DNA of 39,451 nucleotides from contig DAOWGJ010000297.1 in the NCBI GenBank assembly GCA_030637505.1, forward strand, positions 1 through 39,451, read 5' to 3'. Shown here piece by piece: positions 1,888 to 36,134 of the stretch. The DNA comes from Holophagae bacterium. GTDB lineage: Bacteria > Acidobacteriota > Thermoanaerobaculia > Thermoanaerobaculales > Sulfomarinibacteraceae. A program made the translations under genes and the position numbers. The stretch's first letter is position 1; the number at the start of each line of letters is the position of its first letter. The notes beneath the pieces were generated by a model. It saw only the letters and a program-made list of their open reading frames with translations, had not been told where the DNA came from and searched no databases.

Positions 1888-1930
1888 GGTCACTCCCTCT
1901 AATCCAGACTCATTTTCAATGTCACCACAT

Positions 1931-1959
1931 ATGTTATGTCTCGATGCTCGACGTGTCAA
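1931..1959 (-). promoter_or_regulatory. Sigma70-type promoter for the fur-family gene
   Basis: Minus strand reads TTGACA (1954-1959), a 17-nt spacer, then TAACAT (1931-1936), about 40 nt upstream of ATG 1887. Confidence 0.5.
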
Positions 1960-2053: not shown

Positions 2054-3586
2054 ATGGACTATCCAATCTGGGATTTTGCGATGGGCGGCGGTATGTTGAT
2101 GGCCTTGGTGGCCGTTCCCCATGTGATTGTGGCTCACTTTGCCGTCGGGGGCGGGTTGTTGATCGCGGTGACGGAAACCCTCGGAGTACGGCGGAATGAC
2201 CCGGAACTTCGAGAACTGGCCAAACGTTCCTCGCTGGTGTTGATTCTCGTATCCACCGTTTACGGAGCTATTTCCGGGGTCGGCATCTGGGTGGTTGCCG
2301 GTTTGATCTCTCCGGGGGCGATTTCCAGCCTGATTCACAATTATGTGTGGGGGTGGGCCATTGAGTGGGTGTTCTTTATTCTCGAAATCGTCGCTGCCCT
2401 GGTCTACTACGGCACCTGGGACAAGATCTCGAAGAAAGCACACATGTTGGTCGGATGGCTTTACTTTGTCGGAGCCTACGGATCACTGGTTGTCATCAAC
2501 GGGATCATCACCTACCAGTTGACCCCGGGGAAGTGGCTTGAGAGCCACGCCTTCTGGGACGGCTTCTTCAATCCGACCTATTGGCCCGCGACCCTGCTTC
2601 GGACCGGAGTCGCCTTGATGATGGCTGCCGCGTTCATGCTCTTCCCGGCGTCGAAAAGTCGGGAGGCCGGCACTAGGTTGGTGCGGTACATCGGCGGCTG
2701 GCTCGTGGCCGGCTCGTTGATTTCCTACGTCGGCTATCGCTGGTGGGAAGCGCAGCTGGGTGAGACGACGCGGGCCCTTTTCTTGGGAGAGTCCCCGACT
2801 TTGGCCTCTCTGGCGGCAACCCGATCATTCACCTTGTGGGCCTTGGCGGCGGCGCTGGTCCTGGGAATTGTGTTCCTGTTGATCGTCCCTCGAAGCATCA
2901 AGGCGATCGTGCCCGGCATCCTGGTTATGGTGGCGGCGTTTGCCTTTTTCGGTGGTTGGGAGCGGCTCCGCGAAGGTAGCCGCAAGCCTTTCCTGATTCA
3001 CTCACACCTTTTTTCCAACGGGTTGTTGGTTGAGGACATCGAACGGATCAACTCGGCGGGTCTTCAGGCCTATACCGGTTGGGCGTCGACCGGCGGCTTG
3101 GATGACCCTATCGAGGTAGGACGCCGGGTGTTCAAAATTCAGTGCGCCGCCTGTCACACCCTCGGCGGATACCGGAGCATCACCGAGGCCTTGCCGACCT
3201 TTCAGGAGATGCTGGCTGTCACCGCGAACGATCCACCAGGATCGGGCGCTGCGGCATTTGAGGCCGGCTGTGCCTCGTGCCATCGCGACTCCAATTTTGA
3301 GGAAATGGTGGAATTCATGCCAGGGGCCGACGAGATGAAGGAGGATCCCGAGATGGTCACAGACCTTCTGGTGGGCATGATCACGGGCACGCTCGAGCAA
3401 TTACGTGACATGGGGCAGGCATATGTTGATGCCGACCGGTCCGTTCAATTCGACACGCAGACCACCGCCTACCCGATGATGCCGCCCTTTGTCGGGAACG
3501 ACGAGGACCTCGAGGCCCTGGCGACGTTTCTGGGGACACTGACCCATGATGGCGCGTCTACAGTTTTGACTGGAGGTGGAGAATGA
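2054..3586 (+). CDS. CydA-fold (cytochrome bd subunit I-like) membrane protein fused to a C-terminal dihaem cytochrome c domain
   Basis: By-eye alignment to E. coli CydA: HVIVAHFAVGGGLLIAVTET vs HFLFVPLTLGMAFLLAIMET; AIEW..LEIV..GTWDK vs AIEG..LEST..FGWDR; GWERLREGSRKPF vs GWFVAEYGRQPW. About 8 predicted TM helices precede a soluble tail with CAACH (nt 3143-3157), CASCH (nt 3269-3283) and PMMPPF. ATG 2054 follows a G-rich RBS (AGAGGGGGGG). Confidence 0.75.
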   Translation: MDYPIWDFAMGGGMLMALVAVPHVIVAHFAVGGGLLIAVTETLGVRRNDPELRELAKRSSLVLILVSTVYGAISGVGIWVVAGLISPGAISSLIHNYVWGWAIEWVFFILEIVAALVYYGTWDKISKKAHMLVGWLYFVGAYGSLVVINGIITYQLTPGKWLESHAFWDGFFNPTYWPATLLRTGVALMMAAAFMLFPASKSREAGTRLVRYIGGWLVAGSLISYVGYRWWEAQLGETTRALFLGESPTLASLAATRSFTLWALAAALVLGIVFLLIVPRSIKAIVPGILVMVAAFAFFGGWERLREGSRKPFLIHSHLFSNGLLVEDIERINSAGLQAYTGWASTGGLDDPIEVGRRVFKIQCAACHTLGGYRSITEALPTFQEMLAVTANDPPGSGAAAFEAGCASCHRDSNFEEMVEFMPGADEMKEDPEMVTDLLVGMITGTLEQLRDMGQAYVDADRSVQFDTQTTAYPMMPPFVGNDEDLEALATFLGTLTHDGASTVLTGGGE

Positions 3587-4701
3587 CTCCTGATTTGATT
3601 CCTGCAGTTGACGCGGCCGGCCTCCCGGGCCCGGTCTGGCTCTTCCAGTTCTTGTTGGTTCTTACCTTTTTCCTCCACCTGCTGTTCGTGAACCTGACCT
3701 TGGGCGGGACCCTGATGGCGGCCATTTCCCACACCCTTGCCCGCGGCCGGGCCGATGACCCTCGGGGCGTGCTGGCCGGGCGGTTGATCGGGATCAATGG
3801 ATACGGTATTTCCTTAACGATTACCACCGGCGTCGCCCCGTTGCTGTTTATTCAATTGCTTTACCACCAATTTTTCTACACGGCCACCATTCTGATTGGC
3901 TGGATGTGGCTTTCTCTGTTGCTTTTTCTGACTGTCGGCTACTACGCCGTCTATCTCTACAAATTCAAGGGCGCCCCTGCTCGCGGCCGTGGTGGCGGTG
4001 TGTGGCTGTGGACGGCTGCAATCCTGTTCATGGTCATCGGTGCGATTCAGGTTGCCGTCAACCTCATCCATATGCAGCCGGGGTCCTGGGAAGCGCTTGC
4101 CGGCAATCCCTGGGCGATTCTCAACGACCCAACTTTCGTTCCACGCTACCTGCACTTCCTGTTGGCCGGAGTGGCCCTGTCGGCAATGGTCGTCACCTGG
4201 TGGGCCGTTCGGCAAGCGCGCCAGGGTATCGATCCGGACCTCAACGGCACGATTGCACACTTCGCATGGAAGTGGGTTCTGTGGGCCTCGGTGCTGCAGA
4301 TCGCCGACGGCCTGTGGTTGACGATGGCCCTGCCGAAAGATGTCCTGCTCGGCCTGATGAGGGGTGGCGGTGCAACGATGGGGCCGTTTACCGTCGGAGT
4401 CTTCTTCGGTATCGGCATCCTGGTGATGGTGGCCCGGTGTAGTGACCCGGTAACCAGACCTGCACTTGTGACAGCAACCCTTGGGACCACCCTGGCCACG
4501 ATGGCTATCATGGTGGTGACCAGAGACCAGGTCCGTTCGATCTACATGGGTTCATCGGTCGACTTGTCTCAGTTCGTCATCCGAGCACAGTGGGGGAACT
4601 TCTGGCTCTTTGCGATTCTGCTGGTCCTGGGGTTGGCCACCGTCTATTACATGATCCGCAGGGTTCTCAATGAACCAGCGGAGGGTGCGGACGCTGCCTA
4701 G
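3583..4701 (+). CDS. Polytopic membrane protein, second CydA-fold paralogue and probable partner subunit
   Basis: ATGA overlap with the upstream gene. About 9 hydrophobic segments. The TM1 motif FLHLLFVNLTLGGTLMAAISHT closely matches CydA YHFLFVPLTLGMAFLLAIMET. It has no CxxCH, and the acidic CydA residues are not conserved (FIQLL for AIEGL). Confidence 0.6.
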   Translation: MTPDLIPAVDAAGLPGPVWLFQFLLVLTFFLHLLFVNLTLGGTLMAAISHTLARGRADDPRGVLAGRLIGINGYGISLTITTGVAPLLFIQLLYHQFFYTATILIGWMWLSLLLFLTVGYYAVYLYKFKGAPARGRGGGVWLWTAAILFMVIGAIQVAVNLIHMQPGSWEALAGNPWAILNDPTFVPRYLHFLLAGVALSAMVVTWWAVRQARQGIDPDLNGTIAHFAWKWVLWASVLQIADGLWLTMALPKDVLLGLMRGGGATMGPFTVGVFFGIGILVMVARCSDPVTRPALVTATLGTTLATMAIMVVTRDQVRSIYMGSSVDLSQFVIRAQWGNFWLFAILLVLGLATVYYMIRRVLNEPAEGADAA

Positions 4702-4742: not shown

Positions 4743-4773
4743 AAAAAAGGGCGGCCTTCGGGCCGTCCTTTTT
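4743..4773. terminator. Bidirectional rho-independent terminator
   Basis: AAAAAAGGGCGGCC-TTCG-GGCCGTCCTTTTT: a GC stem with a TTCG loop, flanked by an A-run and a T-run. It sits between the convergent oxidase-like operon (+) and tatA (-). Confidence 0.75.
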
Positions 4774-4807: not shown

Positions 4808-4987
4808 TCAGTCCGACGATCCGTTGTCCTCAGCCTCGTCGTTTTTCCCGCTCTTGATCGAGTCTTTGAAGTTGCGGATGCCCTCACCGAGACCCTTGCC
4901 GAGCCGAGGGAGCTTGTTGACGCCGAAAATCAAGACGACGATCGCGAGAATAATCAGGAGTTCAGGGAGACCAAGGCTACCAAACAT
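4808..4987 (-). CDS. tatA: Twin-arginine translocase subunit TatA/E (59 aa; below the ORF-track cutoff)
   Basis: Hand translation: [59 protein letters not shown]. This shows the TatA hallmarks: an N-terminal TM helix, the FG hinge and an amphipathic helix. GGAGG lies 5 nt upstream of the ATG. Confidence 0.88.
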
Positions 4988-5948
4988 CGAAACCTCCAGT
5001 GGCTGCCAAGTCTAGCAGAAATGCCGTTGCCTCGGCGGGCGCTCCGATGTGTTGGGCGATTCCGGCAGCGGCCGAGGCAGTTTTGGGAACCCATCGATGG
5101 TAGTGGGGCAAGCCTTTCGCCGAGAGGAAGGCAAAGGTCCCCAGGACCTTGAGCGCGCGTTGAAGGGTCGTTTCTTCCAGGCGGCGTTCCCATCCGTGAG
5201 CGGCGCCGACACCCTCGGCCCAGGACTGAGCAATGGCGCGCCGCTCGGCACCGTTCAGTAGGTCGGGCATCGCGCGATCCCCGAGCAGACTGGCAAGATC
5301 GTAGGTGTCCGGCCCCCTTCGAAGGTCCTGAACATCGATGACCCCGACCCGGCCGTCGGCCCTCACCAGGATGTTGTTGAGATGGAAATCCCGGAAGCAG
5401 ATCGTCTGTGGGTGTCCGGAGACCGCTGCTGCGAGGTCGTCGAACCACACCTGAAGTACTGAACTGGCTTCCCGTCTTCTGCTCGACGGGCAGCTCCACA
5501 TCTCGAAACCGGCCAGTTCCCATCTGAGAAATGCCTGATCGAGTGAGGGGTTCCAGTCGGGGAGTTCCCGAGGAGGAAGTCTTGAAAGTTGAAAGAGGGG
5601 CTCGACCATGGCGGTGGCGCAAATGACTCGTGATGCTGGAGTTGTTCGTCTCAGGGTCTGTTCTCCGTCGACCCGGCCGAGGTCCTCCAGTAGAACCCAG
5701 GGCGACTGATCGTCACCGACCAGTATCTGAGGAACCGGGAGTCCCCGGTCCCGCAGCCAAATCAACACTTCAATGTCCCTTTTGACCACCGAGAGCCAGC
5801 GGTCGGGGTATCGGCACAGGACGGCAGTCCCTCCCGCTGCCAACACAACCCGCCAGTAGCGGCGGCCGGAGGCATCACCGGCGATCGGCTGCCAATGGGT
5901 GATCCTGTGGGACCCAATGGTGTCCGGGGGCTTAGGTATCGTCTCCAT
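4977..5948 (-). CDS. Aminoglycoside-phosphotransferase-fold kinase (AmgK/MurNAc-GlcNAc kinase-like)
   Basis: Motifs [11 protein letters not shown], catalytic loop [11 protein letters not shown] and [22 protein letters not shown] are typical of the APH/choline-kinase fold. The substrate is not assignable from sequence. The stop lies 11 nt inside tatA. Confidence 0.7.
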
Positions 5949-7828: not shown

Positions 7829-7905
7829 TGGTCGGGGCGAGAGGACTTGAACCTCCGGCCTCACGGTCCCGAACCGTGCGCTCTACCAGACTGAGCTACG
7901 CCCCG
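7829..7905 (-). tRNA. tRNA-Pro (anticodon CGG), CCA encoded
   Basis: Reverse complement folds as a cloverleaf: acceptor CGGGGCG/CGCCCCG, D-arm GCTC-AGTCTGGTA-GAGC, anticodon arm CACGG-TTCGGGA-CCGTG (C34 G35 G36, G37), T-arm GGAGG-TTCAAGT-CCTCT, discriminator A, then CCA. Total 77 nt. Confidence 0.95.
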
Positions 7906-34565: not shown

Positions 34566-35145
34566 CGGTGTCATCGGGGTTCTGGCCCTTCAGGGCGCAT
34601 TCGAAGCGCATCGTGAGGTCTTCCGCCGACTGGGCGTGGCCAGCGTTCCCATTCGAACCCCCCAAGAGTTGGAGGCAGTCGATGCCCTGGTGCTTCCCGG
34701 GGGCGAAAGCTCCGCGATGTTGCGCCTGATGGAACCCCAGGGCCTCTTGGACCGCATTGGAAAGAAAATTCAAGGCGGACTTCCTGTTTTGGCCACCTGC
34801 GCAGGGGTGATTCTCCTGGCCGTTGAGGTGACGCCCCATCAGAAGAGTCTCGGTGTATTGGATGTCGATATCCAGAGAAACGCATACGGCCGGCAGGTCT
34901 TTTCTTCGATCGAGCCCCTGATTTTTAACCCGGCATTCGATGGAACTGTGACCACCAAGGGTGTTTTTATCCGGGCGCCCCGGTTGACCCGGGTGGGCGA
35001 AGGCGTGGAGATCTTGGCGTGGCGGAAGGAAGATCCGGTTTTGGTTCGGGCCTCTGGAATCCTGGCGGCCACATTCCACCCGGAACTGGGACAGGGCTCT
35101 GGCCTTCACGAGTTCTTCCTCAAACACATGGATCGACCGGTTTGA
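34555..35145 (+). CDS. pdxT: Pyridoxal 5'-phosphate synthase glutaminase subunit PdxT
   Basis: [33 protein letters not shown] (catalytic Cys) and FHPEL. The GTG start overlaps the pdxS stop by 11 nt. Confidence 0.9.
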
Positions 35146-36134
35146 TGACTCGGGCCTCCGACCTGGTGTCGGCAGCGGGGATCGACCCCCGACAGGGGGC
35201 TGCAGAGGCTGCCGCATTGATGGTTCGCCGGCTGCCCTTGAGAATCAACGGCCGGCCCCAGGCCACGCCTGAGGAAGCCGTCGAAAATGGATGGTGTTCG
35301 GGCCTCGGTGGGTTTACAGATGTGATCGCGGCGGTGACCACATCTCCGTGCCGGTGGGGAACAGCTTTCGGAGGACGATGGCCGTGGTTTGAGGTTGGTG
35401 GCCATGTGGTGGCTCCGGGCATCCCGGTTCGGTTAGCTGCTGGGACCGAGGACGCCGGCCCCGATGGTGTTTACTCGGTAGACCGGGGCAGGGTCTACCG
35501 GGAGGCCGCTGGACGCCGAGAAGTCGTTTTGCACACCGAAGAGAGCAATTCCTCGAACGAACCGGATTTCTCTCTGCTCTGGTTCTCCGAAACCGCCCGT
35601 TTTCTCGTTCGGGGTGCGGTGTTGGAAATCGAGGATCTCTTTTCGAAGACCCTGTGCTCGGTGACCAAGAGGCAACTTGAACACCTCCTCGTGAGGGCCG
35701 GCAGGGTGAACGAAGATGTGATCGAGGGCCTGTCGTTTGAGGGTGATGCCCGGCCCACAGTTGTCGAGGTCTCTCGAAGTCTTGGGTTTTCAAAAACACC
35801 CTGGCGGGAACCCGTGGCCTTCCTCGAGAGCAGAATCGATGTAGAAGAAGTCAACGCCCGTGGAGATCGTATCTTTTTCAAAGATGTGCGCTCAGAGTCC
35901 GTCGAATTCCTGGTGACCAATCAGGACACAGGATGGACTCTGGAGAGGATGAAGGGACATTTTCCCCTTGAGGTGCTGAGGCTTCACAAAGAAGGTGAGT
36001 CTCTCGTTCTCAGGGCTACCCTCGCGCCCGAGCCCGACATTTTCTCTCCAGGTCTTCGCGGCCGGGTGGTCTTCGACCTCAACGCCGACCTCGGGGCCCT
36101 GCTGGCCCCCTCGGGCCGTTATCAGAAATCGTAG
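35145..36134 (+). CDS. Hypothetical protein (329 aa), no recognisable domain, soluble
   Basis: It is the longest ORF in the region. ATG 35145 overlaps the pdxT stop (TGATG). I recognise no TM segment, signal peptide or catalytic motif. The opposite-strand ORFs here are R/P/S-rich shadow frames. Confidence 0.6.
   Translation: MTRASDLVSAAGIDPRQGAAEAAALMVRRLPLRINGRPQATPEEAVENGWCSGLGGFTDVIAAVTTSPCRWGTAFGGRWPWFEVGGHVVAPGIPVRLAAGTEDAGPDGVYSVDRGRVYREAAGRREVVLHTEESNSSNEPDFSLLWFSETARFLVRGAVLEIEDLFSKTLCSVTKRQLEHLLVRAGRVNEDVIEGLSFEGDARPTVVEVSRSLGFSKTPWREPVAFLESRIDVEEVNARGDRIFFKDVRSESVEFLVTNQDTGWTLERMKGHFPLEVLRLHKEGESLVLRATLAPEPDIFSPGLRGRVVFDLNADLGALLAPSGRYQKS

Follow-up and report, generated by a model that had tools for sequence, protein, structure and literature searches.

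Two adjacent genes in a stretch of DNA from a Holophagae bacterium, here denoted P1 and P2, probably encode an OR-C1-type member of the cytochrome bd superfamily, a membrane oxidoreductase of two subunits in which O2 would be reduced with electrons fed in through haem c. The stretch analysed (the window) is 39,451 nucleotides long and comprises the whole of contig DAOWGJ010000297.1 (assembly GCA_030637505.1), around the replication-origin region. P1 is a CydA homologue that carries a cytochrome c domain in place of the ninth transmembrane helix (TM9), and P2 is a diverged CydA paralogue that stands in for CydB. By feature match to the description published by Murali, Gennis and Hemp (bioRxiv 10.1101/2021.01.16.426971), the two proteins are assigned as an OR-C1a/OR-C1b pair.

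P1 is related to CydA by sequence, profile and fold. Compared with Pfam, it matched Cyt_bd_oxida_I (PF01654) with 38.2 bits (E 8.6e-10; residues 15–195 on positions 5–192 of the 418-position profile), Cytochrome_CBB3 (PF13442) with 36.2 bits and Cytochrom_C (PF00034) with 32.3 bits, all three above the respective gathering scores of 26.2, 27 and 21.3. A family profile built from 30 homologues matched residues 12–163 of the Geobacillus CydA chain 5doq_A in the PDB (E 2.7e-4); in this alignment His23 of P1 falls on the axial histidine (E. coli H19) and Glu104 and Glu111 fall on the channel glutamates. The AlphaFold model of P1 (predicted local distance difference test score, pLDDT, 78) comprises eight long helices and becomes soluble from about residue 311, and the ten best PDB matches returned for it by Foldseek were all CydA chains, with 5doq_A at the top (E 1.8e-5). 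By motif position, Glu104 and Glu111 are the equivalents of E99 and E107, His130 of H126 and Ser144 of S140, and the segment REGSRKPF (residues 306–313) corresponds to AEYGRQPW (444–451) of E. coli CydA, so that Glu307 takes the place of E445. The two channel glutamates are separated by six residues in P1, a spacing like that of qOR2/3, as opposed to seven in E. coli CydA.

Residue conservation was analysed in 54 relatives of P1 from several phyla, 33–88% identical to it. His23, His28, Glu41, Glu104, Trp105, Glu111, His130, Ser144 and Arg183 are invariant throughout this set, as are Glu303, Arg306, Glu307, Arg310 and Pro312, which make up an E445-like ExxRExxRxP motif at the periplasmic end of TM8. 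The elements that serve quinol oxidation are missing. P1 has no Q-loop, because the loop between TM6 and TM7 is only ∼20 residues long, compared with ∼150 in E. coli. There is no histidine at the position of the haem b558 ligand H186, which is occupied by Leu182 or Arg183 depending on the register, and no methionine in TM7, which means that the equivalent of the ligand M393 is lost as well. Because local hhalign alignments against E. coli CydA and CydB were reliable only for TM1–4 of P1 (and only for TM1–2 of P2), the register at H186 was set by an NP anchor together with the table of the preprint, and both favour Leu182. Global-mode hhalign against the single E. coli CydA and CydB sequences produced meaningless alignments and was rejected. 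With the Q-loop, the histidine and the TM7 methionine all absent, the quinol/b558 entry module is therefore gone from P1.

The C-terminal tail of P1, ∼200 residues in length, is acidic (31 aspartate plus glutamate residues versus 10 lysine plus arginine residues) and contains the motifs CAACH (residues 364–368), CASCH (406–410) and PMMPPF (474–479). When lysine and arginine residues were counted according to the helices of the model, the cytoplasmic loops held 11 and the short periplasmic loops two. From this charge bias and the helix count, both the N-terminus and the tail of P1 are predicted to be periplasmic: if the chain starts outside, as that of CydA does, its eight helices would bring the tail out on the same side. 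The periplasm is the site of haem c attachment. Cys364, Cys367, His368 and Met476 are invariant in the 54 relatives, and Pro478 is found in 52 of them. Since Met476 is kept even in single-haem relatives, it is likely to be the sixth ligand of the first haem c. The second CxxCH motif (406–410) lies together with Met418 within an insertion of ∼55 residues that is present in 15 of the 54 relatives, namely the clade of the window; other relatives with two haems have their second motif ∼80 residues past the first. Of the two haem c sites, C364xxCH with M476 is thus universal in the family, and C406xxCH is specific to the clade.

A preliminary description of this DNA had likened the 510-residue protein to CydA by its TM1 histidine, its glutamate pair and its GW..E segment, and had proposed eight helices, a soluble tail in place of the ninth, no long Q-loop and two periplasmic haem c sites marked by CAACH, CASCH and PMMPPF. 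Our residue mapping, the AlphaFold model, the length of the TM6–TM7 loop and the motifs, helix count and charge bias of the tail agree with it on each of these points. It had also noted the loss of the b558 histidine; the residue is indeed not a histidine, but the register chosen there, which put Arg183 at this position, is probably one residue off.

The relationship of P2 to CydA is less evident by sequence. No Pfam or NCBIfam model matched P2 or its 30 relatives, the CydB-type Pfam model PF02322 included, nor did any PDB sequence; three P2 alignments (A2, A3 and A4) compared by sequence with the PDB returned no CydA chain. A shallow comparison of P2 and P1 profiles built from close homologues gave a probability of 12%. 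Because these close-homologue profiles were too shallow, the link had to be made through broad alignments, a BLASTP intermediate and a comparison of folds. With broad alignments of P2 and P1 (42–53 relatives, 25–88% identity, drawn from 80 loci of many phyla), hhalign aligned residues 15–367 of P2 with residues 2–354 of P1 over 313 columns at a probability of 97.2% (E 3.1e-11). The P2 homologue of a Kryptonia metagenome-assembled genome (MAG) matched P1 directly by BLASTP (5.9e-10). The AlphaFold model of P2 (pLDDT 82; predicted template modelling score, pTM, 0.81) matched 5doq_A in Foldseek with an E of 6.7e-7 and a TMq of 0.79, and CydA chains (E 7e-7 to 1e-4) were ranked before CydB chains (E at least 2.5e-3).

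In P2, His32 within the segment HLLFVNLTLGG occupies the H19 position, and Gly106 and Leu113 align with Glu104 and Glu111 of P1, so that the channel glutamates are absent. The preliminary description had anticipated both features, a TM1 that is CydA-like rather than CydB-like and the lack of the acidic CydA residues. P2 has nine predicted helices according to the AlphaFold model and hydropathy, and the ninth (residues 338–359) is kept in the family consensus. On this evidence P2 is best described as a diverged CydA paralogue without channel glutamates, which would take the place of CydB in the complex.

In a set of 66 diverse relatives that are 25–44% identical to P2, Gly41, Trp109, Arg188, His191, Gly243, Met310 and Arg314 are invariant, and His32 and Arg318 occur in at least 90%. 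His191 coincides in position with H186, which ligates haem b558 in CydA, and Met310 precedes by one to two helical turns the motif R314-D315-x2-R318, which is aligned with the E445 motif. Because the pair His191/Met310 is invariant, P2 may bind haem; the His/Met-ligated low-spin haem b that is lost from P1 may thus survive in P2. Electrons would then pass from haem c to haem b of P2 and on to the di-haem site of P1. That P2 is in this way a second haem-binding subunit rather than a passive CydB-like scaffold, with electrons crossing between the subunits, is a tentative proposal that we hold to be possible though on balance doubtful. Such an inter-subunit haem path, if true, would be a layout seen in no solved bd oxidase.

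The architecture found here has a published counterpart. According to Murali, Gennis and Hemp, who defined the OR-C1 family in silico from genome comparisons in 2021, the bd superfamily consists of qOR, OR-C and OR-N members; OR-C1a subunits are without a quinol site, OR-C1b is the adjacent paralogue, and the 'a' subunits retain E99 and E107, which the 'b' subunits do not (bioRxiv 10.1101/2021.01.16.426971). Their supplement gives H19, E99 and E107 of OR-C1a as conserved, H186 as replaced, and M393 and E445 as absent in the reference sequence. OR-C1 haem c counts range from one to eight, the main carriers include Acidobacteria, EG19_10715 of Thermoanaerobaculum aquaticum is classed as OR-C1a, and the donor inferred by the authors is cytochrome c (bioRxiv 10.1101/2021.01.16.426971). 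Further carriers named in their list are Chloracidobacterium thermophilum, Desulfovibrio vulgaris, Sulfurospirillum multivorans, Chitinophaga pinensis and Lysinibacillus sphaericus. A structural paper from 2026 cites the OR classification and contains no OR-C biochemistry, and our full-text literature search for 'OR-C1', non-exhaustive for subscription journals, retrieved no biochemical study of the family. The remark in the preliminary description that cytochrome-c-fused bd clades had been noted and not characterised biochemically fits this record, and its description of the pair as a non-canonical bd-superfamily enzyme of two CydA-fold subunits is upheld by sequence, profile, fold and topology.

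P1 resembles OR-C1a in being a CydA homologue with eight helices, no quinol site and a C-terminal, putatively periplasmic CxxCH domain, and in keeping H19, E99 and E107 at the short spacing between the glutamates; P2 resembles OR-C1b as the adjacent CydA paralogue without the glutamates. The resemblance extends to the family as a whole, which is found on its own within a genome, is frequent among Acidobacteria and has one to eight haems c. The two proteins agree with every testable defining feature of OR-C1 except the helix count of the b subunit, for which the preprint gives 'typically' eight versus the nine predicted for P2, a descriptive difference that does not exclude membership. Further differences concern P1. 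The reference used in the preprint (Desulfovibrio senegalensis) lacks an E445 equivalent, whereas ExxRExxRxP is invariant in the 54 relatives analysed here; the equivalents of H126 and S140, variable in the preprint, are invariant in our set; and the second haem c of P1 resides in a clade-specific insertion. Because the architecture was published as OR-C1a/OR-C1b in 2021, the pair is new as a member and not as a kind.

Comparison with other known systems places these features in context. Canonical CydAB, as seen in E. coli bd-I (6rko) and Geobacillus thermodenitrificans (5doq), has the same fold in both subunits (TM-scores of 0.5–0.8), and P1 shares with it the catalytic core of TM1–4, the proton-channel residues and the E445-type TM8 motif. 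In contrast to canonical CydA, P1 is devoid of the Q-loop and the H186/M393 b558 site, has eight instead of nine helices and a fused haem c, and its partner is CydA-like and not CydB. CydAA′ (qOR4a/qOR4b) of Caldivirga maquilingensis likewise consists of two CydA paralogues that arose by gene duplication, the second without proton-channel residues; unlike the present pair, however, CydAA′ is quinol-oxidising, has no haem c, forms a separate clade and is archaeal. By sequence, the P1 tail best matches class I cytochrome c domains of the type found in CcoP, the dihaem c subunit of cbb3-type oxidases, with which P1 has in common a membrane-anchored haem c that feeds, or in P1 would feed, a terminal oxidase. 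The catalytic subunit of cbb3 is nevertheless an unrelated haem-copper protein, and the catalytic subunit P1 carries the haem c domain as part of its own chain.

The family is widespread. At the cluster level we found more than 2547 homologues of P1, and relatives occur in the genomes of at least 459 species. These belong mainly to the Acidobacteriota (Thermoanaerobaculia, Sulfomarinibacteraceae, Holophagae and Terriglobia), and further to NC10, Desulfuromonas, Desulfobacteraceae, Krumholzibacteria, Kryptonia, Ignavibacteriales, Calditrichia, Verrucomicrobiota, Fibrobacteres and Zixibacteria. A homologue from a Thermoanaerobaculum MAG (locus L020) shares 48% identity with residues 1–508 of P1. 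The P2 family comprises 1760 clusters at 50% identity (E ≤1e-3) and is annotated as 'hypothetical protein' throughout, because no Pfam or NCBIfam model matches it. A P2 homologue adjoins P1 in 78 of the 80 loci, and the remaining two are cut by contig ends. Across lineages, the 80 loci revealed no third conserved neighbour, be it a gene for an electron donor, for a maturation factor or for a regulator, or one resembling cydX; the recurrent neighbours are unrelated genes of housekeeping type (SpoIIE phosphatase, FadL, GDSL lipase, M16 peptidase, patatin, GntR and class V aminotransferase). No cydX-like small gene was noticed at the locus in the window, where short open reading frames (ORFs) were not screened for cydX. 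In four loci, L065, L070, L075 and L076, which stem from Desulfuromonas, Desulfobacteraceae and Bacteroidetes MAGs, the order is reversed to P2 followed by P1, and P1 is 876–891 residues long with eight CxxCH motifs. In the Sulfomarinibacteraceae loci L006–L008 and L013, P2 is followed by genes for a GntR/FCD regulator and a cysteine desulfurase-like class V aminotransferase, which are absent from the window.

In the mechanism that we favour, electrons would enter through the fused haem c from a donor in the periplasm, for example soluble cytochrome c or some other redox protein. Entry by haem c in place of quinol had been proposed in the preliminary description too, in agreement with the published in silico inference. 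The fused haem or haems c would pass them on, in place of the quinol/b558 entry, to a di-haem site formed by TM1–4 and TM8, where O2 or a related small oxidant would be reduced. Protons would be drawn from the cytoplasm via the glutamate channel, the outcome being a bd-style charge separation without proton pumping. Several observations weigh against this proposal. The binding of haems b and d and the attachment of haem c are deduced from motifs. Some carriers have been described as likely obligate anaerobes, and O2 may for this reason not be the physiological substrate. The eight-haem variants in Desulfuromonas-like genomes are nearer to electron-export modules than to oxidases, and neither cytochrome c maturation genes nor a candidate donor were found among the annotated ORFs of the window.

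Some of these observations could also be explained if the pair worked in reverse or were no oxidase at all, but a membrane redox module that connects acceptors in the periplasm with the quinone pool or the cytoplasmic side, with the haems c as the exit for electrons. The multihaem quinol dehydrogenases of metal and sulfur respirers provide a model for such an arrangement, and the eight CxxCH motifs in close relatives from Desulfuromonas, Desulfobacteraceae and one Bacteroidetes MAG would suit it, as would hosts of the pair that are sediment anaerobes with sulfur metabolism; a different quinone site is conceivable despite the absence of the Q-loop. However, the residues that are invariant in P1 are those of the O2-reducing core and the proton channel (the equivalents of H19, E99, E107, H126, S140 and E445), for which a plain electron conduit would have no need, and the known elements of the quinol site, the Q-loop and both b558 ligands, are gone. 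We therefore consider electron export unlikely.

A different role is raised by the gene that lies next to P1 and is transcribed divergently from it. Its product matches Pfam FUR (PF01475) with 92.8 bits over positions 1–119 of the 121-position profile; the NCBIfam scores, 58.5 bits for PerR and 57.8 and 58.1 bits for Fur models, are all far below the cut-offs and do not separate Fur from PerR. The intergenic spacer (1888–2053) measures 166 bp and is the shortest of 23 aligned spacers. It contains the near-consensus fur promoter which, like the divergent gene and the size of the gap, had been pointed out in the preliminary description; its −35 box, GTGTCAAG, is kept in all 23 spacers. So is a block in the fur leader, TAATCCAGWCTCATTWTCA, which extends as TAATCCAGWCTCATTWTCA..GTCTC, is not a clear palindrome and is situated 136–154 bp upstream of the P1 start. 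This block has a single match in the window, none being expected by chance, and is possibly an operator or an element of the 5′ untranslated region. No Fur/PerR box common to the fur and P1 promoters was detected: the spacer holds one conserved block, at the fur end, that does not recur in the window, and no operator was found near the P1 start. An Rfam scan of the spacer gave no match. The longer spacers of relatives hold a separate promoter-like block, TTG...TGnTAnnnT, near P1; its counterpart was not identified in the spacer of the window, where the alignment is gapped and unreliable.

A Fur-family gene adjoins P1 in 22 of the 80 loci (L001–L017, L021, L024, L034, L042 and L074), in all of which P1 is at least 50% identical to that of the window, and only within the Thermoanaerobaculia/Sulfomarinibacteraceae clade. 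Across these 22 loci the Fur-family protein is 90–100% identical, including between genera whose flanking TyrRS and P1 share ∼72% and ∼62% identity, respectively. Inherited gene order is the simplest explanation of the adjacency, because most of the loci keep the TyrRS gene upstream (TyrRS-Fur-P1-P2) and the APH-kinase and RlmN genes downstream. With the conserved DNA at the fur end, control of P1 and P2 by the Fur-family protein, for which the preliminary description had suggested a response to metal or peroxide, is therefore possible but unsupported beyond the adjacency of the genes.

These data bear on the idea that the pair is not a respiratory oxidase but a stress enzyme of a Fur/PerR-like regulon that reduces peroxide, nitric oxide or O2. 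Canonical bd oxidases are known to handle H2O2 and NO, the score of the PerR model is no lower than those of the Fur models, and the Fur-family gene is kept beside the pair in the 22 loci, even in three (L010, L015 and L016) in which Fur-P1-P2 is retained and TyrRS was not detected on that flank. Yet the adjacency is confined to a single clade, with related pairs at 53–66% identity (L018, L045 and L067) as well as those of all other phyla having no Fur-family gene nearby, and the conserved spacer element is fur-proximal, present once in the window and without a companion near the P1 start; we judge this role to be improbable. That P1 and P2 are a degenerate canonical cydAB, a quinol oxidase mis-read through divergence, is very improbable: some databases label homologues as 'cytochrome ubiquinol oxidase subunit I', but P1 has no Q-loop and no His/Met b558 ligands, a haem c domain stands where TM9 would be, the partner is nearer to CydA than to CydB, and this architecture is strongly conserved in the at least 459 species.

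The features of the locus are compiled in the table below. The ORFs of P1 and P2 are located where the preliminary description had placed them. The ATG of P2 overlaps the stop codon of P1 by 4 nucleotides (ATGA), the P1 start MDYPIW is kept among homologues and has GAGGGGGGG upstream, and a second contig with an identical protein, called independently, yields the same products of 154, 510 and 372 residues. The hairpin behind P2 marks the end of the two-gene unit P1-P2; it is followed in the window by the convergent APH-family kinase gene (4977–5948, minus strand).

Table. Features of the P1/P2 locus in window coordinates.
Feature	Coordinates	Strand	Basis or remark
Fur-family regulator gene, 154 aa	1423..1887	minus	Pfam FUR; divergent from P1
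Conserved block TAATCCAGWCTCATTWTCA in fur leader	1900..1918		23/23 spacers
Sigma-70-like fur promoter, TTGACA-17-TAACAT	1931..1959	minus	10/12 positions match
P1, OR-C1a-type CydA homologue, 510 aa	2054..3586	plus	Pfam PF01654, PF13442 and PF00034 above cut-off
P1 membrane core, residues 1–310	2054..2983	plus	Residue conservation, 54 relatives
P1 core codons H23; E104; E111; L182/R183; ERLREGSRKP	2120–2122; 2363–2365; 2384–2386; 2597–2602; 2960–2989		
P1 cytochrome c region, residues ∼350–496	3101..3541	plus	Pfam cytochrome c matches
P1 haem c motifs CAACH; CASCH; PMMPPF	3143–3157; 3269–3283; 3473–3490		
P2, OR-C1b-type CydA paralogue, 372 aa, without CxxCH	3583..4701	plus	hhalign, Foldseek, adjacency
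P2 codons H32; H191; MVVTRDQVR	3676–3678; 4153–4155; 4510–4536		
GC-rich hairpin between convergent P2 and APH-family kinase genes	4752..4765		Terminator-like, T-run on minus strand

In its wider setting, P1/P2 is a core chromosomal pair ∼20 kb from the replication-origin region. The genes that identify this region lie within 10167–33020: the minus strand carries rnpA, yidC, jag, mnmE, mnmG, rsmG, parA, parB and atpF'FHAGD (part of the F1Fo ATP synthase operon), and the plus strand carries dnaA, dnaN, recF, gyrB and gyrA. The GC skew changes sign at 24–26 kb, and the GC content goes down to 0.52. Near dnaA there is no enrichment of E. coli-type DnaA boxes, of which five were found versus 3.9 expected. 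No other oxidase and no soluble cytochrome c gene are present among the annotated ORFs of the window. Elsewhere in the window, a tRNA-Pro (CGG) gene is located at 7829–7905 on the minus strand, between lexA and an SNF-family transporter gene, and an ORF at 35019–36134 (371 residues) has no Pfam match at E ≤1e-5 and may not be a real gene.

Our comparison adds modestly to the OR-C1 preprint. In P1, the additions are the invariance of the E445-like motif and of Arg183 and the gain of a second haem c through an insertion; in P2, they are the nine predicted helices and the invariant His191 and Met310, which suggest a haem in the partner subunit. From these data, the ExxRExxRxP motif and Arg183 of P1 and His32, His191 and Met310 of P2 emerge as targets for mutagenesis and structure determination, and the pair in the window, a two-gene unit with a dihaem tail at a core chromosomal locus, offers a clean and compact example.

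Taken together, if electrons do enter these proteins through haem c to reduce O2, the OR-C enzymes would add a third kind to the cytochrome-c-dependent terminal oxidases, one that has no relationship to the haem-copper oxidases. OR-C1 comprises more than 2500 protein clusters and occurs in at least 459 species representatives, many of these being sediment Acidobacteriota that have been described as likely anaerobes. There the enzyme may serve micro-oxic respiration or the removal of O2.

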